Shown: positions 2,121 through 57,111, counted from the stretch's first letter. The stretch: 64,000 nt of DNA from Dehalococcoidia bacterium (GCA_965247585.1 CBDFHC010000001.1:17042-81041); one strand, 5' to 3'. Program-made: numbers and translations. Notes: generated by a model not told the origin, from the sequence alone.

Positions 2121-4196
2121 ATGGTGTACACGGTAGCGATTGATGTAGGCGGGACGTTCACTGACCTGGTGATGTCCGATGGCGAGGGACGGATAAATTT
2201 GTTCAAGGCACCGACGGTGCCGGAGGCCCCGGTGGAGGGGGTGCTGAGTGCGCTGGAGATGGCGTCGAAGCACTACGGTGTGGGGTTGGCGGAGTTCCTG
2301 GGAAACACGTCGGCGCTGGTACACGGGACGACGGTGGCGACGAACGCGGTGCTGACCGGCACCACCGCCAAAACAGGGCTGATTATCAACCGGGGGTACG
2401 AAGACCTGCTGCTGATTGGATTGGGTTCGAAGGGGAAGGCGGCGGAGGATATGTTTCGGTCGCACATGGCGTACCCGGAGCCGTTCATACCCCGGTATTT
2501 GACGGCGGGGATTGCGGGAAGGATAAACGCGGAGGGGGTTGTGGAGACGCCTTTGGACGAGGAGGACGTTAGGGCGGCGGTGGAACAGATGAAAAGGTAT
2601 GCGGTGGAGGCTGTGGCGATATGCGTGCTGTGGTCGCCGGTAAACCCGGAGCATGAAAAGAGGATAGCGGAGATCGTGAGCGAAGGGCTGCCTGGGATGC
2701 CGTATTCGATCAGTAGCGAAGTGAACCCGGTGATTCGGGAATACGAGCGGACTTCGACGACGGCGATAGACGCGGCGCTAAAGCCGCGGTTCTCCAGGTA
2801 CGCGCTGGAGCTGGAGAGGAGGCTGGCGGACCGAGGGTACGGCGGGGACTTGCTGATGATTAACTCCAACGGCGGGGTGATGAGGGCGGACGAGCTGGCG
2901 GCGCTGCCGATATACGCGATCAAGAGCGGTCCCAGTATAGGGCCGTCGGCGGGGCTGGCGCTGTCGGAGCGGGAAGGGCTGGGGAGCAACGTTTTGGTGT
3001 GCGACATGGGAGGGACGAGCTTCGATGCGTCGCTGGTGACGGAGGGGAGAGTGGTGTCGACGACGGACAACGAGGTGGGGCCGTACCACTACAATGTGTC
3101 GTGCGTGGAGGTGAACAGCATAGGCGCGGGCGGGGGAAGCATTGCCAGGGTGGACCCGGGGGGGCTGTTGCACGTGGGGCCGGAGAGCGCCGGGGCGTCG
3201 CCGGGGCCAGCGTGTTACGGGCTTGGAGGGGAGGCGCCGACGGTGACGGACGCCAACGTGGTGTTGGGGTATCTGAATCCTGACTACTTCCTGGGCGGGG
3301 CGATGAAGATAGACGCCAGGCTTGCGGAGGAGGCTATCAGGGAGAAGCTGGGGAAGCCGTTGGGGATGGACGCGGTGCAGGCGGCGAGCCTGGTGTACGC
3401 GGTGGTGAACCAGTCGATGGTGAAGGGGTTGGAGGAGGTGAGCATTCGAAGGGGGATTGACCCCAGGGAGTACCTGCTGGTGGCGGGAGGAGGGGCGTGC
3501 GCGATGCACGTGATACCGATTGCCCAGGAGCTGGGGGTGAGCCGGGTATTGATACCTAGGATGGCGGCGGGGCTGTGCGCCTACGGGACGCTGTTCGGTG
3601 AGATGATATTTCAGAGGTCGCGAGGGGTGATTACCCGGAGCGACGGGTTCGAATTCGAGCGGGTTAACGCGGCGATGGCGGGGTTGGAGGAGGAGGGAAG
3701 CAGCTTCCTGGAGAGGGCGGGGATTCCGCCGGACATGCGGAGGTTGGAGTTCAGCATGGCGGCGAGGTACCCGTACCAGGCGTGGGAGATTGAGGTACCG
3801 CTGCCGTGGGACCGGATCACGGCGGAGCGGTTGCCGGAGATGGTGGAGCTGTTCCACCAGACGCACGACGGGAGGCACGGATTCCGGGTGGACCACGCGG
3901 TGGAGTGCGTGAGCCTGACGGTGAAGGCGGTGGGCAGGAGGCCGCAGGTGAGGTTGGCGGAGGAGGAGCGGAGCGGAGGGGACGTAAAGGCGGCGATAAA
4001 GGGAGAGCGGCCGACATACTCGGTGGAGGGGAGGGAGTTTGTGAAGACGACGGTGTACGCCGGGGAGCGGCTGCGCTACGGAGACAGGGTTGAGGGGCCG
4101 GCGATTGTGGAGGAGCCACAGACCACGGTGGTGGTGCCTTCCGGGTACCAGGCCTCGGTGACGAAGCTGGGGAACTATCTGTTGGAGCCGCGGTGA
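2121..4196 (+). CDS. Hydantoinase/oxoprolinase family protein, A (HyuA-type) subunit, copy 1
   Basis: 691 aa. N-terminus is MVYTVAIDVGGTFTDLV. Also ..CDMGGTSFDASLV.. and ..NSIGAGGGSIARVDPGGLLHVGPESAGASPGPACYGLGGEAPTVTDANVVLG.., all hallmark blocks of the HyuA/oxoprolinase family. Confidence 0.9.
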   Translation: MVYTVAIDVGGTFTDLVMSDGEGRINLFKAPTVPEAPVEGVLSALEMASKHYGVGLAEFLGNTSALVHGTTVATNAVLTGTTAKTGLIINRGYEDLLLIGLGSKGKAAEDMFRSHMAYPEPFIPRYLTAGIAGRINAEGVVETPLDEEDVRAAVEQMKRYAVEAVAICVLWSPVNPEHEKRIAEIVSEGLPGMPYSISSEVNPVIREYERTSTTAIDAALKPRFSRYALELERRLADRGYGGDLLMINSNGGVMRADELAALPIYAIKSGPSIGPSAGLALSEREGLGSNVLVCDMGGTSFDASLVTEGRVVSTTDNEVGPYHYNVSCVEVNSIGAGGGSIARVDPGGLLHVGPESAGASPGPACYGLGGEAPTVTDANVVLGYLNPDYFLGGAMKIDARLAEEAIREKLGKPLGMDAVQAASLVYAVVNQSMVKGLEEVSIRRGIDPREYLLVAGGGACAMHVIPIAQELGVSRVLIPRMAAGLCAYGTLFGEMIFQRSRGVITRSDGFEFERVNAAMAGLEEEGSSFLERAGIPPDMRRLEFSMAARYPYQAWEIEVPLPWDRITAERLPEMVELFHQTHDGRHGFRVDHAVECVSLTVKAVGRRPQVRLAEEERSGGDVKAAIKGERPTYSVEGREFVKTTVYAGERLRYGDRVEGPAIVEEPQTTVVVPSGYQASVTKLGNYLLEPR

Positions 4197-4220
4197 GGGG
4201 GGGTGGATGGAGGAGATGAG

Positions 4221-4541
4221 CGATGGGTGTTACTGTCACAAGGGGTTGCGAATCACAGTTTGGTGGCGCCCACCCACGACCGCCCAAGAAGGTTTTTACT
4301 CCTGAGGGACACCCTTAGACTCCCGGCAGAGGAGGTATTCCCCCTTGGCGCGTGTCTTTCAAGGGACAATGTATCTATTATCGAGGGAATCCCGAATGCC
4401 GGTTGATAGCGGCACCGCCAGGGATGAAAATCGAGGCTGAGATTGACGGCAGTAGGCGCCAAGGTAGGACTTGCTCTCCCTCCACACCCAGATTCTTGGA
4501 TCCTCACGGGCTGACTCAGAATGACATGGTAGGAGGGTTGG
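4221..4541 (+). repeat. Intergenic mosaic repeat, modules A + C + B
   Basis: Contains GCGAATCACAGTTTGGTGGCGCCCACCC..AAGAAGGTTTTT..CTGAGGGACACCCTTAGACTCCCGGCAG, then ATGCCGGTTGATAGCGGCACCGCCAGGGATGAAAATCGAGGCTG, then ..CACCCAGATTCTTGGATCCTCACGGGCTGACTCAGAATGACATGG. The same modules recur at more than 20 other loci. Confidence 0.85.
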
Positions 4542-4628
4542 ACCGGGGATGGGGTGACGTGGGAATCCGTTCGAGGCAGGATGGGGTGCTATGTTCGAGG
4601 GGATCTTTGTAAGGAGGTTGGAGGAGCG

Positions 4629-6410
4629 ATGAGTGAAAAGCTGGACCCGATTGTTTTCGTGACGCTGGCGAACCGGATGGACGCCATAGTACGAGAGGCG
4701 ATGCAGACGTGCATACAAAGCTCGCGCTCAGCAGTGATCCAGGCGCGGGACCTCTCGGCGTCGATCTGCGACGCCAAGGGGCGGCTGGTGAGCATAGCGC
4801 AGGGGCTGCCGATCCACGTGCTGACTTCGAACATGGCGGTGGAACCGCTGCCGAAGCTGTTCGACGACATAGCGCCGGGGGACTGTTTTCTGAACAACAG
4901 TCCGTTCCATGGGGCAGGGCACCATGCGGACTATACGTTCTGCACGCCGGTTTTCTTTGGGGAGCGGCTGATGTTCTGGGCCTTGCTTCGGGCGCACCAA
5001 GCGGACACGGGGGCGCCGGTGCCGACGGTGTACCTGCCGATGGCGAAGGATGTGTATGAGGAGGGGTTGCATTGGCCCTGCGTGAGGGTGCAGCGGGACT
5101 ACAAGAACCTTTCGGACGTGCTTCGAATAGGGACGTCAAACATACGGGTGCCGGAGAACTGGTATGGGGACTTCGCGGCGGCGGTGGGTTCGACGAGAAT
5201 AGCGGAGCGAAGGCTGGTGTCGCTGACGGAGAAGTACGGCGCGGAGAGCATGGAGCAATTCGTAGAGGAATGGCTGGAGTACGGCAGCCGCCGGATGGTG
5301 GAGGAGATTAAAACGCTGCCGGAGGGGACGTACGAAAACGAGACGACGCTGGACCCGCTGCCCTTCGCGCCGGAGGGGATTACGGTGAAGATAAAGCTGA
5401 CGATTGACCACGCGGCCGGGGAGATGGTGGTGGACCTGACGGAGAACCCGGACCAGTTTGAGGCGGGGATCAACCTGACGGAAGCGACATCCAAGGCGTC
5501 AGTGATGGAGGGGATATTCTGGTGCCTGGACCCGACGCTGCCGCACAACAGCGGGGCGTTCGACCGGGTGCGGTTCAAGCTGAGGGTGGGAAGCATCACG
5601 GGCATCCCGGTGGCGCCGGTGGGGACATCGGTGGCGACGGACTTCACGGCGGACCGGATGGCGAGTTGCGCCATAGCGCTGATGGCCAAGGTGGACCCGA
5701 ACAAGGGTGGAGGTGAGGGGGGTTATGTCAACTGGGGCGAGCCGGTGCTTTCGGGGAAGGACTACCGGCACGATAACGCGCCTTACGTGGACCAGATCAT
5801 CATCCCCGGGGTGTTGGCGGGCGGCGGCCCCGGCGTGAGGGGGTACGACGGCTGGGTGACGTGGATGATTGGGGCGTGCATGGGGAACTCGTGGACGACG
5901 TCTGTGGAGCTGTGGGAGAAGAACTACCCGCACGTGGTGGAGTGCGGCGCGATGATTATGCCGGACTCGGCGGGGGCGGGGGAGTTCAACGGTGGCCCCG
6001 GGGGAAGGGTGGTGACGAGGGCGCGAGGAAACTCGACGCTGGCGGCGGGGTTCGGGGATGGGAAGGTGTTCCCGCCCAAGGGGGTGCTGGGAGGGGAGAG
6101 CGGCGCAGGGAACCAAGGTCACATCCTGGACGAGAGGGGTGAGAGGGTGCAGGAGCTGCCGATGGTGGGGATCTTCGAGGTGAAGGCCGGGCAGGCGCTG
6201 GAGGGTGTGGTGGCGGGGGGCGGGGGCTACGGGGACCCGCTGGACCGTGAGCCGGAGCGGGTGAGGCAGGACGTCCGGAGGGGATGGGTGACGGCGGAGA
6301 AGGCCCGCCGGACGTACGGGGTGGTGCTGGACCTGGGGCCGGAGCTTTTCGCGGTGGATGAGGAGGAGACCAGGAAGCTGCGGGACGAGATGCGGAGGGG
6401 GAGGGTGTAG
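4629..6410 (+). CDS. Hydantoinase/oxoprolinase family protein, B (HyuB-type) subunit, copy 1
   Basis: ..DPIVFVTLANRMDAIVREAMQTCIQSSRSAVIQARDLSASICD.. and C-terminal ..GGGGYGDPLDREPERVRQDVRRGWVTAEKARRTYGVV.. are HyuB-family blocks. ATG 4629 follows AGGAGG. The ORF-track start at 4554 lies inside the repeat. Confidence 0.9.
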   Translation: MSEKLDPIVFVTLANRMDAIVREAMQTCIQSSRSAVIQARDLSASICDAKGRLVSIAQGLPIHVLTSNMAVEPLPKLFDDIAPGDCFLNNSPFHGAGHHADYTFCTPVFFGERLMFWALLRAHQADTGAPVPTVYLPMAKDVYEEGLHWPCVRVQRDYKNLSDVLRIGTSNIRVPENWYGDFAAAVGSTRIAERRLVSLTEKYGAESMEQFVEEWLEYGSRRMVEEIKTLPEGTYENETTLDPLPFAPEGITVKIKLTIDHAAGEMVVDLTENPDQFEAGINLTEATSKASVMEGIFWCLDPTLPHNSGAFDRVRFKLRVGSITGIPVAPVGTSVATDFTADRMASCAIALMAKVDPNKGGGEGGYVNWGEPVLSGKDYRHDNAPYVDQIIIPGVLAGGGPGVRGYDGWVTWMIGACMGNSWTTSVELWEKNYPHVVECGAMIMPDSAGAGEFNGGPGGRVVTRARGNSTLAAGFGDGKVFPPKGVLGGESGAGNQGHILDERGERVQELPMVGIFEVKAGQALEGVVAGGGGYGDPLDREPERVRQDVRRGWVTAEKARRTYGVVLDLGPELFAVDEEETRKLRDEMRRGRV

Positions 6411-13657: not shown

Positions 13658-15064
13658 ATGACAACTACGGAAACGAACCTCTGTTATTTGACGATTTCCC
13701 AGGCGGGGGAGTTGCTTAGGACGCAAAAGCTTTCGCCGGTGGAGCTGACGCGGGCGTTCCTGGACCGTATTGAGGCGGTGGACGAGAAGCTGCACTGCTA
13801 CATTCTGGTGACGGCGGAGGAGGCGCTGAGGCAGGCCAGGACGGCGGAGGCGGAGATACTGCGGGGCGGTTACCGCGGTCCGATGCACGGGATACCGTTT
13901 GCGCTGAAGGACATTTACGACACGGCGGGGATCACGACGACGGCGGGGTCCCGGTTGTTCTTGGACCGGGTGCCGACGGAGGACGCGACCACCACGGCGC
14001 GGTTGAAGGCGGCGGGCGGGGTGCTGTTGGGGAAGCTGCACACGTACGAGTTCGCGCTGGGCGGGCCGGACTTCTCGACGCCGTTTCCCCCGGCGCGAAA
14101 CCCGTGGAACACGGAGCACACTACGGGAGGTTCCAGCAGCGGGTCCGGGGCGGGGGTGGCGGCGGGGTTGACGATGGGGGCGCTGGGCTCCTGCACCGGG
14201 GGGTCGATTCGAGGACCGGCGTCGCTGTGCGGTATTGTGGGGCTGAAGGCGACTTACGGGCGGGTGAGCCGGGCGGGGGTGGTGACGCTTAGCTGGTCGC
14301 AGGACCACTGCGGGCCGATGACGTGGACGGTGGAGGACACGGCGGTGATGTTGCAGGCCATAGCGGGGCACGACCCGAGGGACCCGGCTAGCAGCCGCGC
14401 CCCGGTACCGGACTATTCGCTGGCGCTGCGGGAGGATGTGAAGGGGATGGTGCTGGGGCTGCCGCGGGACTATTTCTTCAGTCCCAGCGCAGACGTGAGC
14501 GCAGAGGTGGTCTCGATTGTGGAGAAGGGGGTGGCGGCGCTGGAGGGCTTGGGGGCGCGGGTGGAGGAGGTGAGCCTGCCGAGCCTGCCATATGTCAGGG
14601 CGGCGAACTCGGTGATTATGATAAGTGAGGCGGCGGCGTTCCACCAGAAAAACCTGGCGGAGCGGCCGCAGGACTACGGCGACGTGACCAGGGCGCGGTT
14701 TCGGCTGGGGCGGATGTTCACGGCGCGGGACTATGTGCAGGCGCAGCGGTGGCGGCCGGTGGCGGTGCGGGAGTTCGCGGCGGCGCTACAGAAGGTGGAC
14801 CTTCTGGTGACGCCAACGATGACGCAGCCAGCGGGCAAGTTTGAGGGGTACGACCCGCTGTTCACGTCGAAGGGGCCCAGCTTCACGGCGCCGTTCAATT
14901 TCACGGGGCTGCCGGCGATATCGGTGCCGGCGGGGTTTACCGAGGCAGGGCTGCCGGTGGGGATGCAGATAGCTGGGAAGCCGTTCGACGAGCCGGGGGT
15001 GATAAGGGCGGCGTACACGTACCAGCAGCACGCGCGGTGGTTCGAGAGGAGGCCGCCTGTATAG
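13658..15064 (+). CDS. Amidase-signature family enzyme (GatA/AtzE-like), copy 1
   Basis: 468 aa. ..HGIPFALKD.. and the Gly/Ser-rich amidase signature GGSSSGSGAGVAAG. Good RBS (GGAGAG..GGTGAGGAT) before the ATG. Confidence 0.9.
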   Translation: MTTTETNLCYLTISQAGELLRTQKLSPVELTRAFLDRIEAVDEKLHCYILVTAEEALRQARTAEAEILRGGYRGPMHGIPFALKDIYDTAGITTTAGSRLFLDRVPTEDATTTARLKAAGGVLLGKLHTYEFALGGPDFSTPFPPARNPWNTEHTTGGSSSGSGAGVAAGLTMGALGSCTGGSIRGPASLCGIVGLKATYGRVSRAGVVTLSWSQDHCGPMTWTVEDTAVMLQAIAGHDPRDPASSRAPVPDYSLALREDVKGMVLGLPRDYFFSPSADVSAEVVSIVEKGVAALEGLGARVEEVSLPSLPYVRAANSVIMISEAAAFHQKNLAERPQDYGDVTRARFRLGRMFTARDYVQAQRWRPVAVREFAAALQKVDLLVTPTMTQPAGKFEGYDPLFTSKGPSFTAPFNFTGLPAISVPAGFTEAGLPVGMQIAGKPFDEPGVIRAAYTYQQHARWFERRPPV

Positions 15065-24524: not shown

Positions 24525-26552
24525 ATGAAGAGGGTTGGCGTGGATATTGGCGGCACGTTCACCGATTTGGTGGTATACGATGAGGCCAGCGGTGAGGTGA
24601 GGAAGACGAAGACGCCGACAACGCCTAGCGCACCGGAGGAGGGGCTGCTGCGGGCCTGCGAGCTGGCGGAGGTGGACGCGGCGGAGGTGTCTTATTTCAT
24701 GCACGCGACGACGCTGGTGACGAACCTGGTGTTGACGCGCAGCGGGGCGCGGGTAGGGTTGCTGACCACCAAGGGGTTCCGGGACGTACTGGAGATTGGG
24801 ACGAGCTATCGCCGGGACCTTTACGATTTGCAATACGACAAGCCTAAGCCGTTCGTGCCGAGGCACCTGGTCTACGAAGTGGATGAACGGGTGGACCACA
24901 AGGGTAACGTGCTGGTGGCGCTGGACCCGGAGGAGGCGAAGCGTCAGGTGGGGCGATTGATGGAGCAAGGGGTGGAGGCGATTGCGGTGGCGCTGTTCAA
25001 CTCGTACGCGAACCCGGAGCACGAGCGGATGGTGGGGGAGGTGGTGCGAGGGATGTGGCCGGAGGCGCACCTGAGCTTATCGTCCGAGGTGGACCCGCGG
25101 ATTCGAGAGTACCCGCGGGTGAGCACCACGGTGCTGAACGCGTATGCGATGCCGAGGACCCGGGGATATATAGAGCGGCTGGACAAGGCGTTGGGAGTGA
25201 GCGTGAAGTACATGCATTCCGGCGCGGGGATTGTGCCTTCGGAGCAGGCAGGGAGGTTTCCCATAACGCTGGTGGCCTCGGGGCCGGCGGCGGGTGTGCT
25301 GGCTGGGAAGTTCATCGGCGACAAGGTGGGGCGGCAGAACCTGATCACGATTGACGCGGGCGGCACCAGCTTCGACGTAGGGATAATTCGAGACGGAGAG
25401 CCGGACATTAAGGCCGAGGTGGAGGTGGAGTGGGGGATACCGGCCAGGACGCAGAGCGTGGACATCAACTCGATAGGCGCCGGGGGAGGGAGCATAGCCT
25501 GGATAGACGAAGGAGGCGCGCTCAGGGTGGGGCCGGAGAGCGCCGGGGCGGTGCCGGGTCCGGCTTGCTATGACCAGGGGGGGACGCGTCCCACGGTGAC
25601 GGACGCCAACCTGGTGATGGGGCTGTTGAACCCGGACAATTTTTTGGGGGGCCGGCTGAAGATAGAGCCGGAGAGGTCAGAGGAGTCGATAAGGCCCATT
25701 GCGCGGCACTTCGGCATTTCGTTGGAGGAGGCGGCGCTGGGCATTTACCGGGTGGTGAACGCCCACATGGTGCAGGCGATCCAGGCGGTGACGGTGAGGA
25801 AGGGGATAGACCCCAGGGACTTTACGATGGTTTCCTATGGCGGCGCAGGTGGACAGCACGCGTTCGAGGTGGCGAAGGAGGTGGGGGTGCCGACAATCCT
25901 GGTGCCGGCGGGACCGAGCACGTTTTCGGCGTTCGGGCTGCTGACGGCGGACCTGAAGAACTCGGTGTCGCGAACACTGATGTGGCCGGTGGCCAGGTTC
26001 TCGGTGGCTGAGCTTCGGCGGGTGCTGAACGGGTTGGAGAAGAGCGCCAAGGGGTTCCTGAAGGGGGAGCGAGGCAACATTGTGGGGACGGAGGTTGCGT
26101 ACACGCTGGACGTGAGGTACGTGGGGCAATCGAACGAGGTAGCGGTGTCGCTGGACGGCGGAAGGCCGGTGACCAGGGAGGCGGTTTACCGGGCGTTCGA
26201 GGAGCGGCACCAGCGGCTGTACGGGACGCGGCTGGGGGACGCGGCGGAGATTGTGAACGCGCAGGTGACGGTGACGGGGCTGGTGCAGGCGTTGGAGATG
26301 CAGAGGGGAAAAGGCGCAAGGAAGGCCGCCAAGGCCAAGGCCAAGGAGCAGCGCAAGACGGCGCTATATGACGGACCGGTAGCGGTGTTCGACCGGGGGG
26401 AGTTGGAAAACGGAATGAGGGTGAGGGGGCCGTGCATAGTGGAAGAGGAGGATTCGGCGTTCTTCATGCCTCGGGGCGCGGATGCCACGGTGGACGAGTA
26501 CGGCAACCTTCTGGTGAACACGAACAGCGCACGGCGCGCAGCGCGGCGATAG
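24525..26552 (+). CDS. Hydantoinase/oxoprolinase family protein, A (HyuA-type) subunit, copy 2
   Basis: 675 aa. MKRVGVDIGGTFTDLVV.., ..IDAGGTSFDVGII.. and ..NSIGAGGGSIAWIDEGGALRVGPESAGAVPGPACYDQGGTRPTVTDANLVMG... A diverged paralogue of 2121..4196. Confidence 0.9.
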   Translation: MKRVGVDIGGTFTDLVVYDEASGEVRKTKTPTTPSAPEEGLLRACELAEVDAAEVSYFMHATTLVTNLVLTRSGARVGLLTTKGFRDVLEIGTSYRRDLYDLQYDKPKPFVPRHLVYEVDERVDHKGNVLVALDPEEAKRQVGRLMEQGVEAIAVALFNSYANPEHERMVGEVVRGMWPEAHLSLSSEVDPRIREYPRVSTTVLNAYAMPRTRGYIERLDKALGVSVKYMHSGAGIVPSEQAGRFPITLVASGPAAGVLAGKFIGDKVGRQNLITIDAGGTSFDVGIIRDGEPDIKAEVEVEWGIPARTQSVDINSIGAGGGSIAWIDEGGALRVGPESAGAVPGPACYDQGGTRPTVTDANLVMGLLNPDNFLGGRLKIEPERSEESIRPIARHFGISLEEAALGIYRVVNAHMVQAIQAVTVRKGIDPRDFTMVSYGGAGGQHAFEVAKEVGVPTILVPAGPSTFSAFGLLTADLKNSVSRTLMWPVARFSVAELRRVLNGLEKSAKGFLKGERGNIVGTEVAYTLDVRYVGQSNEVAVSLDGGRPVTREAVYRAFEERHQRLYGTRLGDAAEIVNAQVTVTGLVQALEMQRGKGARKAAKAKAKEQRKTALYDGPVAVFDRGELENGMRVRGPCIVEEEDSAFFMPRGADATVDEYGNLLVNTNSARRAARR

Positions 26553-26577
26553 CCGGCTTCGAAAAGAGGAAGTAAAG

Positions 26578-28365
26578 ATGGCAGCCAGCAGCACCAAAGC
26601 ACGGGTCAAGGGAAAGAAGAAGTTGGACTCGTTCACGGCGGAGATTATGCGCAGCTACCTGGTCTCCACGGTGGAGGAGATGGTGGAGATAACGGTGCGG
26701 GCGGCGTATTCAACGTGCTTCAGCGAAGGGCGGGACTTCACGTGCGCGCTGTTTGACGACAAGTCCCGGATGATTGCGCAGGCGTATGGTATCCCGGTGC
26801 ACTCGGGGGCGCTGTTCGACCCGATAGAGACGCTGATGGCGACGTACGATACGTTTGAGGCGGGGGACGTAATTGTTTTCAACGACCCGTACAACGGGGG
26901 GTCGCACCAAGCGGACGTGGTGGTGGCAAGCCCAATTTTTCTGAAGAAGCGGTTGCTGGGGTTCGCGGTAAACCGGGGGCACTGGGTGGATATTGGGGGC
27001 ATGGCGCCGGGGGGCTGGTCCGGTACGGCACGGCACGTGATACAGGAGGCGCTGATTATTCCGCCGGTGAAGCTGTACAAGGGGGGAGTGCTGGACCGGG
27101 AGATACGGGACTTTATTCTGAAGAACGTCCGACTTTCCAAGCAGTGCTGGGGGGACATCCAGGCGCAGATAGCATCAAACATTGTGGCGGAACGGCGGGT
27201 CCTGGAGCTGATCGACAAGTACGGGCTATCGCAGGTGTTAGAGGGGATGGAGGAGGCGCTGAGGTATTCGCGCAGGAGGTTTACGCGGATGCTGGAGGGG
27301 CTGCCGGACGGGGAGTGGGAGGGGACGGAGTACCAGGAGGACGACGGTCAGGGAGGCGGGCCGCACAAGGTGCAGGTGAGGTTGACGAAGAAGGGACGCC
27401 GCGTTTCGATGGACTTTTCAGGGACGAGCCCGCAGGTGAGGGGGCCGGTGAACTGCACGTTCACGGAGACGAAGGCGGGTTGCTACACGGCGCTGATGAA
27501 TGTTGTGGACCCGGGGGTGCCGCTGAATTCCGGTGCGATTGAGGGGATTGAGGTGAAGGCGCCGTTGGGGTGCATGGTGAATCCTACGTACCCAGCGCCG
27601 GTGTTTTCGACGACGTCCGACCCGCTGAACAAGGTGTATGAGGCCGTGTTGAAGGCGATGGCCCAGTGGCTGCCGGACCGGGTGACGGCGGGGAGCTATT
27701 GCACGATGAATAACTGCACAGCGTCCGGAGACCTGCCGGAGGATGGCGAGGAGTTCATCTGGTATCACTTCGGGCCGGGCGGTGTTGGGGCCAGGGCGAC
27801 GAAGGATGGACGTGACGGGGACTGCCACGCCATGACGAACGCGAAGACGGAGTCTATGGAGCTGTGGGAGGTGCGGTACCCGGTGCGGTTTGAGAGGTTG
27901 GAGTTGATAGAGGATTCCGGCGGGCCGGGGAGGTACCGGGGTGGACTGGGGGTGAGCCGCCAGATCCGAGTGCTGGAGCCGACGTTCCTGACGGGATGCG
28001 CGGACCGGCACGAAATTCCGCCGTGGGGCATTGATGGGGGCGGGGAAGGGAAGCCCAATAAGTTCGCGCTGATTCGAGACGGTAAGGAGTGGGACTTTCC
28101 GGGGCTGTACGGGACGTTGTCCAGCTCCAAGTTCACGAACCTTCCGCTGAAGGTGGACGATATCTTCGACATACGATCCGGCGGAGGGGGAGGGTACGGC
28201 GACCCGAGGCTACGGGAACCGGCGTCGCTATTGGGGGATGTGCGCAACGGCTACGTGTCGCCGGAGAAGGCGAGGGATGATTATGGGGTGTGGATTGATC
28301 CGGTTACGGGGAATGTGGACGAGGTTAAGACGGAGCGGCTGAGGTCACGGCGCGGCAAGGGGTAG
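26578..28365 (+). CDS. Hydantoinase/oxoprolinase family protein, B (HyuB-type) subunit, copy 2
   Basis: 595 aa. ..DSFTAEIMRSYLVSTVEEMVEITVRAAYSTCFSEGRDFTCALFD.. and ..GGGGGYGDPRLREPASLLGDVRNGYVSPEKARDDYGV... RBS AGAGGAAG lies before the ATG. Confidence 0.9.
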   Translation: MAASSTKARVKGKKKLDSFTAEIMRSYLVSTVEEMVEITVRAAYSTCFSEGRDFTCALFDDKSRMIAQAYGIPVHSGALFDPIETLMATYDTFEAGDVIVFNDPYNGGSHQADVVVASPIFLKKRLLGFAVNRGHWVDIGGMAPGGWSGTARHVIQEALIIPPVKLYKGGVLDREIRDFILKNVRLSKQCWGDIQAQIASNIVAERRVLELIDKYGLSQVLEGMEEALRYSRRRFTRMLEGLPDGEWEGTEYQEDDGQGGGPHKVQVRLTKKGRRVSMDFSGTSPQVRGPVNCTFTETKAGCYTALMNVVDPGVPLNSGAIEGIEVKAPLGCMVNPTYPAPVFSTTSDPLNKVYEAVLKAMAQWLPDRVTAGSYCTMNNCTASGDLPEDGEEFIWYHFGPGGVGARATKDGRDGDCHAMTNAKTESMELWEVRYPVRFERLELIEDSGGPGRYRGGLGVSRQIRVLEPTFLTGCADRHEIPPWGIDGGGEGKPNKFALIRDGKEWDFPGLYGTLSSSKFTNLPLKVDDIFDIRSGGGGGYGDPRLREPASLLGDVRNGYVSPEKARDDYGVWIDPVTGNVDEVKTERLRSRRGKG

Positions 28366-28384
28366 GGGGAGGTGGGGGGGTGTG

Positions 28385-28700
28385 TTGGGTACTGAGGGAC
28401 ACGCTCAGGCTCCCGGCAGAGAGGGACAACCACCTCTGGACTCCCCTGGGAGGGACAGAGGAACTTTGCGCCGGTGGAGGCGGAAAGGCCCCCTGGACTC
28501 TGACTAGCGGGCATTTCAGGCGGACTGAGGCGGAAATCTGGGAGGATCAGCTATGGAGATGGGGATGGTGCCCACAAAGGGGAGCGAATCACAGGTTGGT
28601 GGTTCCCATCTACCCGCCCCGGAAGGTTTTAAAATGTATTTCTGAGGGACACCCTCAGGCTCCCGGCAGGGAACCTGGGGTCCCTGCACTCTCCTGGGGG
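28385..28700 (+). repeat. Intergenic mosaic repeat (A 3' fragment + full A)
   Basis: CTGAGGGACACGCTCAGGCTCCCGGCAGAGAGGGACAACCACCTCTGGACTCCCC (about 28392), and ..GCGAATCACAGGTTGGTGGTTCCCATCTACCCGCCCCGGAAGGTTTT..CTGAGGGACACCCTCAGGCTCCCGGCAGGGAACCTGGGGTCCCTGCACTCTCC (about 28642). Confidence 0.85.
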
Positions 28701-28765
28701 GGTGGGCCCTGATAGGGCAGGAGAGATGCTCTTAAGAGTTTGAGACGATCATTAGGAGTGGCAGC

Positions 28766-29350
28766 ATGTATCGGATTAAGCCAGTGCCCCGGGAACGGGC
28801 GGCACCGCAGGTGCAGGAGTGGTACCGGCAGGATATAGAAACAAGCGGGACGGTCCAGAGCGCCAGCGCTATCTACAGCCACCGGCCGGCGGTGTTGCCC
28901 GCGTTCCGTGAGCTGATCAGCGCGGTGGACGAGGCCAGCGAGCTGCCGGAGCAGATCAGGTGGCTGGTGGATGCCAAGGCGGCCTCGCTGGTGGGGTGTC
29001 CATCTTGAATGGACCACAAGGCTAGCGGAGCTAGTCTCTCGGGCATACCTCACGAAAAGATAGTGGCCATCCTGGACTTCCGGAGCAGCGAGTTGTTCAC
29101 GGAGGCGGAACGGGCGGCGTTGGAGCTAGCGGAGGCGATGACGATTACGCCGCCTGTGGTAACGGACGACTTGTACCGGCGAGTGGGGGAACATTTCGCC
29201 GAGGGGCAGGTGGTGGAGCTGGCAGGCAGAATTGCGGTTGAGAATTTCAGGAGCCGGATCAACCGGTGCTTTGACGTGCAGCCTACCAACGTCTATTCGC
29301 GATTGTCGGAGCTGCTGAGCGAGGCAAAAGGGTCCGCGACGGCCAGGTGA
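28766..29350 (+). CDS. Carboxymuconolactone decarboxylase/AhpD-like protein with in-frame TGA (candidate selenocysteine; alternatively a disrupted gene)
   Basis: ORFs 28766..29008 and 29009..29350 are contiguous in one frame, separated only by TGA (29006..29008). The joined text ..AASLVGCPS[TGA]MDHKA.. places the TGA at the second Cys of the CMD/AhpD CxxC..H motif. A hairpin with a G-rich apical loop lies at 29020..29036. RBS AGGAG lies before ATG 28766. Confidence 0.6.
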
Positions 29351-29499
29351 GGTTGAACGTACGGAGCTTTGACTAGATGTGTAAAGCACACCCTCTGACT
29401 CTCCCCCTCAATAGGTAGAGAGGAATATTGTTGCTAGACGGGCTATCCCCATCTGAACATTCCGAGAGGGCTTCTCAAGCGGATGAAGGGTGCTGATTT

Positions 29500-29715
29500 A
29501 GAGGCGGTCAGCCTGGAGTAGGGGGTTGGAGGCAATGAATGGCTACAAATTGAAGGTTGGTGCTACCCACCCATCCGCCACGGAAGGTTTTAACAACTAA
29601 TTGCTGAGGGACGCCCTCAGACATCCGCCAGAAGGGGCCATCCACCTTTGGACTCCCCCTTGGTAGGCGCATGTAGGGTGGCGGCGGTGCTATTTCCATA
29701 GGAATGACATGACTT
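29500..29715 (+). repeat. Intergenic mosaic repeat (A + E 5' part)
   Basis: ..AAATTGAAGGTTGGTGCTACCCACCCATCCGCCACGGAAGGTTTT..CTGAGGGACGCCCTCAGACATCCGCCAGAAGGGGCCATCCACCTTTGGACTCCCCC.. then ..CTATTTCCATAGGAATGACATGAC.. Confidence 0.85.
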
Positions 29716-29781
29716 GCGCGGATGCTCAGTATACGACGAGGTGACTGTGAAAAGCGGAGGAGGTCAAAAACTTAGAGGCTC

Positions 29782-32681: not shown

Positions 32682-33292
32682 CCCATGCCGGTTAGGACCG
32701 GCGGCACTGTGAAGGGTGGAAAATCAGAGGTTGGTGGTGCCGCTCTCCTTCGAGGGCCTCAGGATGAGCGGGAAAAGGAAGCGCAAAGGTCTATTTGGGA
32801 GGCAATCAGCCATGGCGCTGGTTAGCGGCAGCGCGGAGGGTTGCGGGTCGACGGTTGGTGGTTCCCACCGTCCCGCCCCGGAAGGTTTTAAAAGTTTTCT
32901 GAGGGACACTCTCAGACTCCCGGCAGCACCACTTAGGTTCCCTATACTCTCCAGTGTGGTAGGAGGCGGAAGTGGTGTTTGAGCACCAATTATCCAGGGA
33001 ATCAGCCGTGGCGATGGGTGTCATTACTGCAGAGGGTTGCGGGTCGACGGTTGGTGGTTCCCACCCACCCGCCCCGAAAGGTTTTAAAAGGTTTTTCTGA
33101 GGGACACCCTCAGACTCCCTGCAGAGAGGCTGTGCCCCTCTGCACTTCTCCTTTGAAAAGGCGTCTTTGGACAAAGCGAATCGGGGGTTGGTGGTTCCCA
33201 CCATCCCGCCCAGGAGGGATCTAAAAAGGCTTTTCTGAGGGACGCCGTCAGGCTCCCGGCAGGGACCCCAGGTTCCCTGCACTCTCTTGTGC
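32682..33292 (+). repeat. Intergenic mosaic repeat (C + A5'/D hybrid + three A copies)
   Basis: CCCATGCCGGTTAGGACCGGCGGCAC.., then AAAATCAGAGGTTGGTGGTGCC joined directly to GCTCTCCTTCGAGGGCCTCAGGATGAGCGGG. Three A copies follow, with cores at about 32899, 33097 and 33235. Confidence 0.85.
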
Positions 33293-33574
33293 AGACGGTT
33301 CACTTTGATATTCCGGGCTGAGCTGTTGTCAAGGCAGTCTCGCGGGTGGGAAGGTGACGAGGAAACGGGTGGGAGGGGGTGTACGTAGAGGAAATGGTGA
33401 GTCCAACGGTAGGGGGACGAGAGGGAAGGCTCTTGGCGTCGGTGGAGGTGGGGGGTTGGACCGCAGGCTGTAGACGGCGGCGGCAAGAGGGGCGTCAGGT
33501 TGTGCTCTGGTATGAAACGAATGAGAATGGTTGCTACTTCGGGCGAGGGGGCCGGATTGGCCTGGTTTAAAACC

Positions 33575-36861: not shown

Positions 36862-39800
36862 ATGGGCCTGCTATCACTGTTTAACCAGTCACTGATGATC
36901 GCCATAGGGCGGATCAGGTCCGGCTGGCGCCTGGAGCTGGTGTTGTTCTTTGGGATACTGCTGGCGGTGGCGCTGATGGCCAGTGGAGTCATCTACTCTG
37001 ACTATCTGGAAGAGACGACGCTACAGAGGACCCTGGAGAAGGCGAGCCCCAACGAGGCCAATGTGGCGTTCCTGAGCATAGAGCGGCTGAACCCGGTGAA
37101 GTACCAGGCTGTGCAGAAGGTGGTGGGGCGGGATATGACGCCTGGGCTGGCGCCGTTCATGGTTGAAGAGTCGCAGTTCATGGAGACCAACACCTTCTTC
37201 TATTCAGGGCACCCGCAACTGGAGCTGGACAATGATGTGAGACCGCGGGGCAAGTTGCAGTACCTGCCGGGAATAGAGAAACGAACGCGGCTGGTGGATG
37301 GGAGGTGGCCGGTTGAACGGGAGGGCGTGATGGAGGTGGCGATAGACAGCCTGGGGCTATTGTTGCTGGAACTGGGGGTGGGCGACGAGATGCGGATTAT
37401 CCGGCCGCCGCAGACGGCGCCGATGTCCGCCAGGGTCGAGATTGTGGGGGAGTTCCAGCGGCTGGACCCCGAGGACGAGTTCTGGTACGGGATTGAAGGG
37501 GCGTTCAGCGTGCAACGGGACGACTGGGCGTCAGTGCCGATGTTCACGGCGTGGGAGAACCTGTTCAGGGGGACGAGTATAGAGTCCGAGGCGTTGTATC
37601 CCTCTGTGAAGTGGTTCTACTACCTGGACCGGGAAGGGCTGGGTTCCGAGGATGTGGCGCCACTGAGGAACACGCTGAGGCGGATTCTGCTGGTGAAACA
37701 GGCGCAAATTCCGAACGGCTCGATATCAACCAGTCTGTTGAAGCTGCTGGACCGGTACTCCGAGCAGGTGCTGCTGGCGAGGATTCCGCTGTTCCTGCTG
37801 GTGTTTATGTCAACTGGGATACTGCTGTTCTACCTAGCGCTGGTGGGGACGGTGGTAGTGAAGGGACGCGCGGGGGAGTTGTCGCTGTTGAAGAGCCGGG
37901 GGTCAACCACGGGGCAACTGGGGCTGATGTCATTGGTGGAGGGTTTGCTGCTGGCGGCGCCGGCGATAGCGCTGGGACCGTTTCTGGCGCTGCTGGCGGT
38001 GCAGGCGCTGGGGGGTAGGCTGTTCGCGGGGGGAGAAGCGACGGCAGCGGTGGCGTCGGTATCGGCGACGGCGTTCGTGCTGGGGGCGGCCGGGGGGCTG
38101 CTGGCGGTGGGGGTATTTGTGTTGGTGACGACGCTGGCGGCGCACCGTGGGATGGTGGAGTTCAGGTATGAAGCGGCGAGGCCGGCGCAGACGCCGTGGT
38201 TGCACCGGTACTACCTGGATATTGCCATATTAGGGGCGATTGGGGTGCTGTGGTGGCAGATACAAAGCAGGGGATCGTTCCTGGTGAGACCGCTGGGCGA
38301 GGGCAATTTGCAGATGGACTATTCGCTGTTGCTGGGTCCGGCGCTGGGGCTGCTGGCGTTCGGGTTGTTGGTGCTGCGGTTCTTCCCGATATTGGTTTCG
38401 TTGATGATGCGGCTGATAGCGCCCATAGGGGCGCCGTGGGTTGTCCATGGACTGCGCCGACTGTCCCGGGACCCGGTAATGCCGGGTATTCTGGTTGTGC
38501 TGTTGATGATAGCCTCGGCGCTGGGTGTGGCGGTGGCGGTGCTGAGCTCAAGCGTGGAACGAAGCCAGCGGGACCGGGCGTACTATGAGGCGGGGGCGGA
38601 CCTGCGGATTGAGCACAACCCGAATCTTTTTACGACGAGTGGCGCCGACGCGGCGGCGGTGGTGAGGTCTGACCCCGGGGTAGTAGAGGCAACAGCGGTG
38701 CGACGGGAGGACGGGAGCCTGCTGACCAGCGGCAGAAGCGAGTCGATTTCCGTGCTGGCGGTGGAAAGCTCTCGGTTCGCCGACGTGGCCTGGTTCCGGG
38801 AGGACCTGGCGGGATTGGGGCTTTCAGATCTGACCGGGGTGCTGACGCCGGCCGACGCAGGGGAGGACGGGATCTTGCTGCCGGAGGATACAACGCACCT
38901 GGCGCTATGGACCCAGCCGGGCAGGTCTGATTACCGGGCGCTGGTCAGGGCGAAGGTGGAGGACAGCGAAGGGCTGATTTTCGAAATGTTTGTCGGCCAG
39001 CTAGACCGGAGGGACTGGGTGCGGCTGGAGGGCCCGGTGGCGCCGTTGCCGATACGCGGGTTGGGCAGGGCGCGGGTGACGGCGGATGTGAAGCCGCCGT
39101 TCAGGCTGCACTCGCTGTCGTTCGTGTTCGCGTCGCAGGCAACGGAGCCCAGTGTGCTGTACCTGGACCGGCTGACGGCGGTGACGCCGGACGGGGAGGA
39201 GCTGGTGACGGAGTTTGGTGAAGCGGAGGACTGGCAAACATTGGAAGATTACTCCAGGCCGGGGCTGACGGGGCTGGAACGGAGCGAATCGGTGACGCGG
39301 GAGGGGCGGGCGACGGCGGTGTACACGGCGTCACCGGCGGGGCTGGCGATCCGTGGAATACGTCACGGGAAGGAGCAGCGACCGCTGCCAGCGGTGGTGA
39401 GCGAATCGTTCGCCGAGCTAGCGGACGCCGAGGTGGGAGATACGGTGAATGTGCGGCTGTTCAATGTGGCGGCGCCGATCAAGCTGATGGCGGTGGCGGA
39501 GTATTTCCCAACGCTGTTCCCGCGGAATGAGCCGTTTGTGGTGTTGGAGCTGGATACGATGAACCAGTTCTCCAGTCTGCACAGGAGTCAGAACATATCG
39601 GGGCCGGACGAGGTGTGGGTGAGGCTATTGGACCCGTTGGCGTCGCCGGAAGGCCTGGTGAGATCTTTGCGGGAGTCAGGGGTCACGGTGCAAGAGGTGC
39701 ATTCGGCGGAGGAGATGGCGGCGGAGCGGCTGGGCCAGACGCTGGTGACGTCCGGGTGGGAAGGGCTCTTCGTGCTGATGTTCCTGTCAGTGGTGATGTC

Positions 39801-40235: not shown

Positions 40236-41345
40236 ATGCCGGCTGAAAGTGGCAGCACCGGGGATGAAAATCTAAGCAGGAGGGTCTTAAGGAAACGATG
40301 CGGGTGGCTATTCTGAGGCGTAATCAGCAAAGACAATGGGTACCATTATTTGACCGGATTGCGAATCACAGGTTGGTGGTACCCACCCGCCGGCCCAGGA
40401 AGGTTTTTAGGGTTGATTAATGAGGGACACCCTCAGACTCCCGGCAGATGGGGTATTCCCCCTCTGCACTCCTCCTTTGGAGGCGTCCTTGAAGGGACGA
40501 TGTATCTATTTTTGGGAGAACCGAGCGTGCCGGTTGAGGCTGGAACCACCAGGGATGAGAATCTAAGCAGGAGGCTCTTAGGGAAACGATGCGAGTGGCT
40601 ATTCTGAGGCGTAATCAGCAAAGACAATGGGTACCATTATTTGAACGGATTGCGAATCAGAGGTTGGTGGTACCCACCCGCCGGCCCAGGAAGGTTTTTA
40701 AGGTTATTTCTGAGGGACACCCTCAGACTCCCGGCAGAGAGGCTGTGCCCCTCTGCACTCCTCCTTTGGAGGCGTCCTTGAAGAGACGATGTATCTATTT
40801 TTGGGAGAACCGAGCATGCCGGTTGAGGCTGGCAGCACCGGGGATGAGAATCCAAGCAGGAGGGTCTTAAGGAAACGATGCGGGTGGCTATTCTGAGGCG
40901 TAATCAGCAAAGACAATGGGTACCATTATTTGACCGGATTGCGAATCAGAGGTTGGTGGTACCCACCCGCCGGCCCAAGAAGGTTTTTAGGGTTGATTAA
41001 TGAGGGACACCCTCAGACTCCCGGCAGAGAGGCTGTGCCCCTCTGCACTCCTCCTTTGAAGGCGTCCTTGAAGGGACGATGTATCTATTTTTGGGAGAAC
41101 CGAGCGTGCCGGTTGAGGCTGGAACCACCAGGGATGAGAATCTAAGCATGAGGCTCTTAGGGAAACGATGCGAGTGGCTATTCTGAGGCGTAATCAGCAA
41201 AGGTGGTTGGTAGCGCTGTTTGAACGAATGGTAAATCACAGGTTGGTGGTACCCACCCGCCGGCCCAGGAAGGTTTTTGGGGTTGATTACTGAGGGACAC
41301 CCTCAGACTCCCGGCAGATGGGGTATTCCCCCTCTGCACTCCTCC
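40236..41345 (+). repeat. Tandem array, ~290-bp unit x ~3.8, of a composite repeat (C + spacer + A)
   Basis: The anchor .TGCCGG(C/T)TGA..GCTGG.A.CACC.GGGATGA.AATC.AAGCA.GAGG recurs at 40237, 40528, 40817 and 41107 (periods 291/289/290). Module-A cores lie at about 40421, 40710, 41001 and 41290. Copies 1/3 and 2/4 are more alike in the 5' half, while copies 1/4 and 2/3 share the variable hairpin. Confidence 0.95.
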
Positions 41346-41425
41346 GTGGGGGCTTTTTAACCGGATGATGGCAGTTATTTCCGAGGCGGTAGAATGAAAG
41401 GGAAGAGTAGAGGATTGGTGGAAGG

Positions 41426-45279: not shown

Positions 45280-46188
45280 TCAGCGGTTCTCCTGCTGACG
45301 GTCGCTCATGTACTGTAAATGGTTGGCCAAGACGGCCACCAGGAGCCAGATGATGAGGCTGAGGCTGAGGATGCTGGCGGAAACTTCCCAGGTGATGGGG
45401 TTGATATCCAATGGGAGGATGGCGGCGGACATGACGGCGAGGGAGGCGCCACCGATGCTGCCGACGGCGTAGGGCATATAGGCGGCGGCGATTGCCAGGA
45501 GGAGGCGGCGTGAGTGGTGAATGTTGGGGGGCAGGAGCCAAATGGAGGAGCGGGTGAGCAGGAGGCCAACGATGAGGGCGATAAAGGGCGGCACCGAGCT
45601 TAATACCAGTACCTTGGTGTGGTCTGCCTCCAATGTGATGGCGGTGGAGGCTACGGTAACGGCGGTGGCCAAGGTGACGAGGATGATGACGAAAGCAAAG
45701 AAGTTGAAGGCGGCGGGCCGGGAGAGGAAGAAGAGGTGAAGGGGGGTGCGAATGTCTTCATAAGATTTGGGGGAGCGTTCCTGGGGCGCGGCCGGGGTTG
45801 GGCGGTGCACCACGCTGGGGTGTTCCAGGGCGCGGTCTATGGAGCGGCCCAACTCGGAGAGGGTAACGGGCTTACTAAGGAAGTCTGATGCGCCGTCCCT
45901 GAGCTGGTCCACGGCGACGGAGAACTTGTCCACGGCGCTGAGGAAGATTACGGGGAGGCCAGGGTGGTTTTCCCGGATGTGGCGGAATAGCACGGAGCCG
46001 TCCATGTCTGGCATGAGGATGTCCAGGAGCACCAGGTCCACGGTGTGGTGGGCGAGGAAGGCGATGGCGGCGTCACCGGAGGAGACGGAGTTGCAGTGGT
46101 AGCCGAGTAGCTCCAGCCCTTCTGAGAGGGTCTCGCCGAGGCGCTGGTCGTCGTCGACCGGGAGGAGATGGTTTGAGGTACGCTGCAC
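45280..46188 (-). CDS. Response-regulator receiver domain fused to a multi-TM region (probably truncated hybrid sensor)
   Basis: From GTG 46188: VQRTSNHLLPVDDDQRLGETLSEGLELLGYHCNSVSSGDAAIAFLAHHTVDLVLLDILMPDMDGSVLFRHIRE..FLSKPV.. (REC domain), followed by 4-5 hydrophobic helices. The ORF-track start at 46449 adds an implausible Pro-rich leader. Confidence 0.65.
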   Translation of the reverse strand: MQRTSNHLLPVDDDQRLGETLSEGLELLGYHCNSVSSGDAAIAFLAHHTVDLVLLDILMPDMDGSVLFRHIRENHPGLPVIFLSAVDKFSVAVDQLRDGASDFLSKPVTLSELGRSIDRALEHPSVVHRPTPAAPQERSPKSYEDIRTPLHLFFLSRPAAFNFFAFVIILVTLATAVTVASTAITLEADHTKVLVLSSVPPFIALIVGLLLTRSSIWLLPPNIHHSRRLLLAIAAAYMPYAVGSIGGASLAVMSAAILPLDINPITWEVSASILSLSLIIWLLVAVLANHLQYMSDRQQENR

Positions 46189-55689: not shown

Positions 55690-57111
55690 TCAGCTAACGG
55701 TGGGCCGCAGGGTGTACCAGCCGGCGTAGCGCTCGTAGGCGTGGGCCAATTGGAAGATGGTGGGCTCGGCGAAGGGTCTGCCGACGAGTTGCAGGCCGAT
55801 GGGGAGGCCGCGTTGACTGAAGCCGCAGTTGATGGACAGCGCCGGGGTGCCCACCAGGTTAAAGGGCCCCATGAAGTTCTGGTCTATCATGTGCCCAAGC
55901 AGCTCCCGGATGTCGAAGGAATCGAAGGCGGGGGCGGGCCGGGGTGACGTGGGCATCGCCAGCAGGTCCACCTTCTGGAAGGTCTCCACGAACTCTTTTC
56001 TCACTACTTTGCGGGCCTGTTGGGCGCGCACGTAGTCCTGCGAGAGGAACGCGCCCAGGTAGGACATGGTGCGGATGGCGTCGCCGTAGGAGTCGAGTTG
56101 CTCGGGCCGGGTGCGGAGGTTCTCGCGATGGTAGCCGAAGGTCTCGGCGAGCCAGATTACGACGGTGGCCACGGAAGCGTACTCCAGGCTGGGGATGGTG
56201 ACCTCTTCAACACGAGCGCCCAGGGATTCCAGGGCTGATAAGGCCTTGTTAAAGGCGGCGAGGGTCTCGGAGTCGACGTTCAGCGCAGGGTCTTCGATGT
56301 AGTGGCGAGGAACGCCAACGGTGAGACCTTGGGCGCCGCGGCGCAGGGTGGCGGTGTAGTCGGGGACCGGCGCATGGCTGGAAGCTGGATCCGTGGGGTC
56401 TTGGCCGGCGACGGTCTGGAGCACCAGGGCGCAGTCTTCGACGGTCCAGGCCATGGGGCCGGTGTGGTCGAGGGACCAGGCCAGGCCCGCAAGGCCGGAG
56501 CGGCTGACCCGGCCGAAGGTGGGCTTGAGGCCGACGATGCCGCACCAGGATGCGGGGCCTCGGATGGAGCCGGCGGTGTCTTCGCCCATGGAGGCCATGG
56601 CCAAACCTGCGGCCACGGAGACGCCGGAGCCGCTGCTGGAGCCGCCGGGGATGCAGCCGGTGTCCCAGGGGTTCCGGGCCTGTTCCAGAAGGCTGGTGTC
56701 CGGGCCGGCCATGGAGAGCCCCATCATGACGACTTTACCCAGGTGTATGGCGCCAGCGTTGCGGAGGCGAGCGACGGCGGTGGAGTCCCGGCTGGGCGTT
56801 GGGTGGCTGAAGCCGCCAGGGTAGGCGGTGGTGCGCACGTTGGCGACGTCATAGCCGTCTTTATGGGCCACGGGGATGCCGTGGAGGGGGCCGCGGTACC
56901 GGCCCTGGAGGATTTCGGACTCGGCAGTACGGGCCTCGGCCATGGCGCTGCCGGGGAGGACGGCGGCGTAGGTGTGGAGGACGGGCTCCAGCGCCTCAAT
57001 GCGGTCAAGGAAGGCGCGGGTGAGTTCCACGGGGGAGAGCTCCCGGGCGCTGATGAGACGGCCCGCCTGGGCGATGGTGAGGTGGCAGAGGTTTTGGTTG
57101 TTGGCGGTCAT
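55690..57111 (-). CDS. Amidase-signature family enzyme (GatA/AtzE-like), copy 2
   Basis: 473 aa. ..HGIPVAHKD.. and GGSSSGSGVSVAAG. RBS AGGAGGGA lies before the ATG. N-terminal text is parallel to copy 1 (..NLCHLTIAQAGRLISARELSPVELTRAFLDRIEA..). Confidence 0.9.
   Translation of the reverse strand: MTANNQNLCHLTIAQAGRLISARELSPVELTRAFLDRIEALEPVLHTYAAVLPGSAMAEARTAESEILQGRYRGPLHGIPVAHKDGYDVANVRTTAYPGGFSHPTPSRDSTAVARLRNAGAIHLGKVVMMGLSMAGPDTSLLEQARNPWDTGCIPGGSSSGSGVSVAAGLAMASMGEDTAGSIRGPASWCGIVGLKPTFGRVSRSGLAGLAWSLDHTGPMAWTVEDCALVLQTVAGQDPTDPASSHAPVPDYTATLRRGAQGLTVGVPRHYIEDPALNVDSETLAAFNKALSALESLGARVEEVTIPSLEYASVATVVIWLAETFGYHRENLRTRPEQLDSYGDAIRTMSYLGAFLSQDYVRAQQARKVVRKEFVETFQKVDLLAMPTSPRPAPAFDSFDIRELLGHMIDQNFMGPFNLVGTPALSINCGFSQRGLPIGLQLVGRPFAEPTIFQLAHAYERYAGWYTLRPTVS

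Follow-up and report, generated by a model that had tools for sequence, protein, structure and literature searches.

A single reading frame runs on the plus strand from an ATG at 28766 to an ordinary TGA stop at 29348-29350, within the 64-kb stretch of DNA analyzed here, which we call the window. An in-frame TGA at 29006-29008 is the only interruption; counted as selenocysteine (Sec) 81, it brings the frame to 194 codons that probably encode a selenoprotein of the AhpD-like/CMD fold. The preliminary description of this DNA had read two ORFs, 28766-29008 and 29009-29350, as one frame broken only by this TGA, which is exact to the base. Across the site, the peptide reads ..LVDAKAASLVGCPS[TGA]MDHKASGAS.. 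(LVGCPS-TGA-MDHKASGAS). A Shine-Dalgarno-like AGGAG, read from the sequence, lies on the plus strand at 28754-28758, 7 nt 5′ of the ATG. The GC3 value is 0.81 5′ of the TGA and 0.76 3′ of it, and the Pfam-supported genes of the window range from 0.76 to 0.86.

The TGA falls in the redox motif C-P-S-U, whose first residue is Cys78 (codon TGT, 28997-28999), the presumed resolving thiol. As the earlier reading had it, the TGA occupies the place of the second Cys of a CxxC in a CMD/AhpD protein, and the alignment of homologs puts Cys there. That reading had also expected a His after the CxxC: a His is present (His84, 29015-29017, in C-P-S-U-M-D-H), and its spacing of three residues from Sec81 departs from the canonical CMD spacing of four (C-x-x-C-x-x-x-H).

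For profile searches, Cys was placed at the TGA in the joined protein. The Pfam CMD profile (PF02627) matched residues 41-124 over the whole of its 84 positions, with 28.2 bits against a cut-off of 23. The equivalog model NF053654 ('GroundWater_YciW, YciW-related (seleno)protein') aligned end-to-end, residues 1-176 on model positions 1-176 of 179, at 103.8 bits, which is under its cut-off of 310. The window protein scored 27.8 bits with TIGR01926 ('peroxidase-related enzyme'), under the cut-off of 81.8. The product is almost certainly an AhpD-like (COG2128/YciW-type CMD-fold) selenoprotein with the redox center Cys78-Pro-Ser-Sec81.

When the window was scanned for TGA codons lying in frame between two stretches with coding signal, the site at 29006 and two others were returned, and the 29006 TGA is the sole non-artifactual one of its kind. 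A candidate at 38548 on the minus strand was dropped as antisense to a real gene. The other match, TGA 45280-45282 on the minus strand, is the normal end of a response-regulator gene; the 54 in-frame codons that follow it (GC3 0.74) are probably due to chance.

The neighbors of the gene encode hydantoinase A/B, a luciferase-like oxidoreductase, ABC transporters and amidases, and no ahpC or bmp-type neighbor was found among the scanned window ORFs. Two hydantoinase A/B pairs and two amidases occur in the window (2121-6410, 24525-28365, 13658-15064 and 55690-57111), along with a luciferase-like oxidoreductase, MmgE/PrpD and several peptide ABC transporters. Such catabolic content, rich in paralogs, is in keeping with marine Dehalococcoidia of the SAR202 type; the SAR202 label is our own inference.

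We also observed a dispersed repeat of ~117-136 nt in nearly every intergenic region, with ~34 copies across the window. Copies at 28561-28696 and 29522-29658 flank the selenoprotein gene, a partial copy lies at 28392-28446, and arrays occur at 40361-41348 (period ~290) and 32843-33293. Of the 34 copies, 32 are on the plus strand regardless of the orientation of neighboring genes. The repeat has conserved sub-hairpins (GGTGG/CCACC and CTGAGGG-ACA-CCCTCAG), reaches a word depth thousands of times baseline in the source run, recurs in seawater DNA and metatranscriptome contigs, and has no Rfam match. For its 28-nt core, the matches listed (at least 45 stretches) include only Dehalococcoidia/Chloroflexota MAGs. 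Together with the neighboring hydantoinase B, which is 62-72% identical to Dehalococcoidia MAG proteins, the repeat ties the window to Dehalococcoidia.

Conservation of the TGA in homologous loci

Database searching initially returned five homologs, whose DNA has TGA at this codon in every case, and scans of genome and metagenome contigs added at least 160 further loci. Across the aligned column in 158 homologous loci, TGA occurs 50 times, a Cys codon (TGC or TGT) 108 times, and TAA or TAG never. Homologs share the N-terminus and the 80 residues preceding the site, and nearly all of them have the Sec/Cys site at residue 81.

On a neighbor-joining tree, the window gene sits within an all-TGA clade of 21 distinct sequences (clade 1), to which Cys clades are sisters. 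Clade-1 members share 41-84% amino-acid identity and the motif C-P-[STFY]-U-[MIVLT]-D, in which Cys78 is invariant; their sources are Chloroflexota, Dehalococcoidia, Thermomicrobiales and other MAGs, and marine and soil metagenomes. Most of them have no His after the Sec and read U-M-D-T-N. His84 is confined to the marine subgroup of the window gene; other members have Thr, Ser or Ile at that position and Asn one residue later.

The neighborhoods of these relatives contain no conserved partner gene shared with the window. A luciferase-like neighbor shared with one relative (L011) was set aside as a partner, being only 27% identical and probably a coincidence. In four loci of the U-M-D-T-N subclade, although not in the window, a PEP-mutase/isocitrate-lyase-family gene (PF13714) adjoins the selenoprotein gene (L010 9121-9897, L012 10590-11384, L013 6974-7786 and L015 3579-4376).

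Both halves of the frame are under the same constraint. Compared with an 83%-identical relative (L003), dN/dS is 0.154 upstream of the TGA and 0.160 downstream; compared with a 67%-identical one (L001), for which synonymous sites are saturated, pN is 0.19 upstream and 0.18 downstream. A seawater DNA contig (covering 28878-29218) and a metatranscriptome contig (28790-29041) keep the TGA despite several base differences. The preliminary description had proposed an ortholog alignment as a check and had named a lineage-specific TGA with degraded downstream sequence as the outcome that would count against it. What we found was TGA at the Cys column in the 21 clade-1 sequences, Cys forms in the sister clades, no decay, and equal selection on both halves. 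We note that in L003 (1-190) the frame upstream of LDEASELP is unlike the window N-terminus and is open to the contig edge; this part of L003 reflects either a chimera of the assembly or a genuine replacement of the N-terminus.

We also searched 1.84 billion representatives (50% identity) exhaustively, without a profile, and inspected the best 150. Of these, 114 cover the full length and have Cys at the site; another ~20 are C-terminal fragments beginning at the site or a few residues past it, and a single N-terminal fragment stops just short of it. In one representative (P0022), the Sec/Cys column holds Arg (Q-C-P-F-R-I-D).

Two further groups of TGA forms lie outside clade 1. A large soil clade (clade 2; L097-L127 and others) has the motif C-[EAV]-Y-U-[LM]-[AS]-S-H, with Cys sisters that read C-E-Y-C-L-N-S-H, and it passes the TIGR01926 cut-off (92 bits vs. 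81.8). A third TGA clade (L109 463-465, L129 628-630 and L132 1496-1498) reads V-A-Y-U-M-D-I-R, with Sec but without the first Cys of the CxxC, and has a hairpin of its own, UCACGCC-GUU-GGCGUGA. Judged by its motif, this third clade would be a selenoprotein without a resolving thiol.

A hairpin downstream of the TGA under RNA-level selection

Within the coding sequence, at 29019-29037 on the plus strand, a hairpin with an 8-bp stem and the apical loop GGA (29027-29029) overlies codons 85-91 (K-A-S-G-A-S-L). Its core, GGCTAGC-GGA-GCTAGTC at 29020-29036, had been picked out earlier and is confirmed here; an extra A-U pair extends the stem to 29019-29037. The spacing from UGA to loop is 18 nt, and the hairpin alone has a folding energy of -9.1 kcal/mol. 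The published bacterial SECIS (bSECIS) consensus specifies a loop of 3-9 nt, a stem of 4-16 bp, a G in the first two loop positions, a spacing of 16-37 nt and an MFE of at most -7.5 kcal/mol (PMC13188914). With its GGA loop, 7-8 bp stem, 18-nt spacing and -9.1 kcal/mol, the window hairpin falls within the constraints of PMC13188914, and the earlier statement that its spacing and loop fit the bacterial rules holds.

Single-sequence folding did not distinguish the hairpin from shuffles (z of -0.7 to -1.6, not significant), and in one relative (L005) it is not the minimum-free-energy fold. As the energies of single hairpins are unremarkable, support for a SECIS rests on comparison between sequences. 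No Rfam family matched anywhere in the window at gathering thresholds, and at E <= 10 over 28366-29781 there were two chance matches only.

In the 21 clade-1 sequences, the register of the helix is constant, without indels, and 84% of cells are paired. Four of the seven pairs have changes on both sides (GCUAGC/GCUAGC, CACUGC/GCAGUG, GCUGCC/GGCAGC and others). The covariation score was matched by none of 500 shuffles, slid controls were all far lower, and RNAalifold independently gives the same helix. The hairpin spans six degenerate codons, and L001 matches the window at every one of them, vs. 35% identity for such codons elsewhere (P ~0.002). GCT, GGA and AGT are among these conserved codons and have A or T at the third position, in a genome where ~80% of third positions are G or C. 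The strict hairpin is present at the site in 38 of 46 distinct TGA forms vs. 1 of 104 Cys forms (Fisher p 1.7e-26). Both environmental contigs carry a T>C change at 29035 that is synonymous and converts a G.U pair in the stem to G-C.

Soil clade 2 (C-E-Y-U-L-A-S-H) has a different hairpin, CCGCCUU-GGC-AAGGCGG (variant CCGCUCU/AGAGCGG), at the same distance from its TGA, and this hairpin also covaries. The window hairpin is under RNA-level selection of its own at SECIS distance. A SECIS test had likewise been suggested from the sequence, and its result is favorable: the hairpin follows the published rules, covaries, suppresses synonymous change, and is present in TGA forms and not in Cys forms.

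Decoding of the TGA

We conclude, with a probability of roughly 0.9, that 28766-29350 is one intact, functional selenoprotein gene in which UGA is read as Sec. The alignment, the SECIS tests and the absence of contrary outcomes thus support the original proposal that the gene encodes an AhpD/CMD-family selenoprotein of the CxxU type and carries a bacterial SECIS. An error of sequencing or assembly was rejected, as the TGA is present in five independent assemblies as well as in the seawater DNA contig and the RNA contig.

A single base change converts TGC or TGT to TGA, and the window showed no Sec machinery; both facts would suit a pseudogene, in which a Cys codon has mutated and the gene is dead. 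We consider this extremely improbable, since the same TGA recurs in the 21 distinct sequences of clade 1, with identities as low as 41%, dN/dS downstream (0.16) is at the upstream level with downstream GC3 intact, and the hairpin accompanies TGA rather than Cys. The chance that the locus instead holds two small genes, or a split protein whose second part starts at ATG 29009, is next to negligible, even though an ATG directly follows the TGA in the window and public gene callers made just such a split (P0002 and P0003). No Shine-Dalgarno motif precedes 29009, and orthologs have ATA, ATT, ATC, CTC or ACC after the TGA (GTG is also seen), so the second half has no separate start in the orthologs with those five codons. 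The cut would also fall inside the CxxC, beside the first residues of a predicted helix of one compact domain, as judged from the model of a homolog (P0001).

The TGA might also be decoded without selenium, by a reassigned code (Trp or Gly) or by near-cognate read-through (Trp or Cys), and a public gene call indeed gives P0001 a W at the site. The DNA of P0001 reads TGA, so that this W is a code-4 gene-caller artifact. Of the 26 other Pfam-supported genes in the window, 10 end in TGA and none has an in-frame TGA, from which it follows that the genetic code is not reassigned; TGG codons number in the hundreds in these 26 genes. The site lines up with a catalytic Cys and not with Trp, and a SelB-type hairpin is conserved exactly there, making decoding without selenium highly improbable. 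Finally, the gene could be a selenoprotein gene by descent that is now silent or truncated, its lineage having recently lost the Sec machinery. In favor of such a loss, no sel genes or tRNA-Sec were seen in the window, where the only other candidate Sec enzyme, a formate dehydrogenase, uses Cys. Against it, gene and SECIS are intact, and close variants (the 83%-identical sequence and the seawater contigs) keep both under purifying selection; one variant contig comes from an RNA library, in which DNA carry-over is possible. We therefore regard a recent loss of the machinery as very unlikely.

The search for the machinery itself covered the window and the homologous loci. There are no tRNA genes in the 64-kb window and no SelA, SelB or SelD among 30 scanned window ORFs. 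Across 2.26 Mb of homolog loci and flanks, tblastn with E. coli SelD and SelA gave no match, and ARAGORN found no tRNA-Sec. The window formate dehydrogenase (61024-63783, minus strand) had been cited as a counterweight for having Cys at the classical Sec site, and codon 62746-62748, in ..TRLCHAPSV.., does encode Cys. This enzyme has an FdsA-like domain layout. NAD-linked FdsA-type enzymes normally use Cys, so a formate dehydrogenase of the Cys type carries little weight against Sec use. BSepDB records Dehalococcoidia MAGs with 46 and 49 selenoproteins (PMC13326102). Sec use by the source organism has support only at the level of its lineage.

With UGA read as Sec, a mechanism can be proposed. 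UGA 29006-29008 would be decoded as Sec during translation: by analogy with the established bacterial mechanism, from which we infer SelB-dependent insertion, SelB.GTP.Sec-tRNA(Sec) would bind the apical loop, which contains GG and lies 18 nt past the UGA, and deliver Sec to the ribosome. We consider a selenol/thiol oxidoreductase the most likely function of the protein. By reference to AhpD and Bmp8, Sec81 would act as the nucleophile that attacks an oxidized or electrophilic substrate, and Cys78 would resolve the adduct to give a selenenylsulfide, which a cellular reductant would recycle. By analogy with AhpD, the substrate may be a peroxiredoxin or a peroxide; by analogy with Bmp8, it may be an organohalide.

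Annotation and comparison with known systems

The significance of the locus is chiefly a matter of annotation, as the gene is split or mistranslated in public calls. These calls (P0001, P0002, P0003, P0024, P0026 and others) are systematically wrong, giving fragments of 80 and ~110 residues (80 + 113) or rendering the TGA as Trp. The clade falls short of the cut-off of every curated NCBIfam model, so automated pipelines will keep miscalling the gene. With this gene, marine Dehalococcoidia-like bacteria gain a well-supported selenoprotein whose SECIS covaries, and the nearest solved relative of the protein, the debrominase Bmp8, offers a testable idea about the chemistry of a very abundant but functionally uncharacterized ocean selenoprotein family.

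By sequence, Bmp8 is the closest solved structure (PDB 6OHI, E 5.5e-18, residues 6-172), followed by uncharacterized 'antioxidant defence' and 'peroxidase-related' CMD proteins and by bacterial AhpDs. A model of the 67%-identical homolog P0001 stood in for the window protein in structural comparison. It is all-helical, with a pLDDT of 80.9 and a predicted helix at 79-91 directly after Cys78. The top 32 Foldseek matches to this model are all AhpD/CMD proteins, with Bmp8 first (TM 0.71).

Bmp8 is reported to carry out the reductive debromination of tetrabromopyrrole, with oxidation of its cysteines to a disulfide (PMC5577590). The Cys (Cys82), Cys and His of its G-C-M-Y-C-K-S-H (6OHI and 6OHJ) align with Cys78, Sec81 and His84, and its His lies three residues past the second redox position, as in the window protein. 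The two differ in that they share only about one residue in four (23-24% for P0001) and the window protein has Sec for the second Cys. They also differ in source, a gammaproteobacterium for Bmp8 and Dehalococcoidia for the window, and no bmp-type halogenase or biosynthetic cluster lies near the window gene among the scanned ORFs. Homology and motif alignment raise the idea that the C-P-x-U-x-D clade, and especially its marine C-P-S-U-M-D-H subgroup, might be a Sec-dependent relative of Bmp8 and not serve in peroxide defense, which we think unlikely. If it were true, marine Dehalococcoidia would have a small, cofactor-free reductive dehalogenase in which a selenol removes the halogen. Halogen removal by a selenol is known from the thyroid deiodinases.

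The AhpD of M. tuberculosis (1KNC and 1GU9), the founding alkylhydroperoxidase of the fold, shares the all-helical CMD fold and the CxxC redox pair. It is a remote structural match only (Foldseek E 0.2-1, TM ~0.5), its His spacing is different, and the window gene has no ahpC neighbor. In AhpD, the second Cys of the CxxC is the nucleophile, and we take the position of Sec81 to be that of this Cys, Cys133 in the M. tuberculosis enzyme.

Proteins of the NF053654 and TIGR01926 families belong to the same length class and have the Sec/Cys site near residue 81. Every clade-1 member tested differs from NF053654 in scoring only 100-180 bits against 310 (eight relatives give 100-179 bits). Because clade 1 scores under the cut-offs of both models, it is a sister subfamily and a member of neither curated family. 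On these profile scores, the window gene is best called a member of a known selenoprotein superfamily within an uncurated sister subfamily.

That the AhpD-like/CMD proteins form a known selenoprotein family of marine metagenomes, as the preliminary description had stated, is borne out by ocean CxxU precedents since 2005. CxxU AhpD-like and CMD selenoproteins were reported from the Sargasso Sea in that year (27 and 4 sequences) and are abundant in ocean metagenomes, 'AhpD-like 1' accounting for 299 sequences from 37 samples in the GOS data (Zhang, Gladyshev and co-workers, 2005 and 2008; PMC1088965, PMC2398784). A 2026 review places AhpD-like CxxU selenoproteins under TIGR01926, PF02627, NF041238 and NF041047. 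The window protein resembles the marine families ('AhpD-like 1', COG2128; 'AhpD-like 2', CMD-domain PF02627) in its CMD/AhpD domain, in Sec at the second CxxC position, in a small G-containing SECIS loop just downstream, in its many Cys homologs and in its marine occurrence. Compared through published descriptions rather than sequences, the window protein and these marine selenoproteins show no difference in kind.
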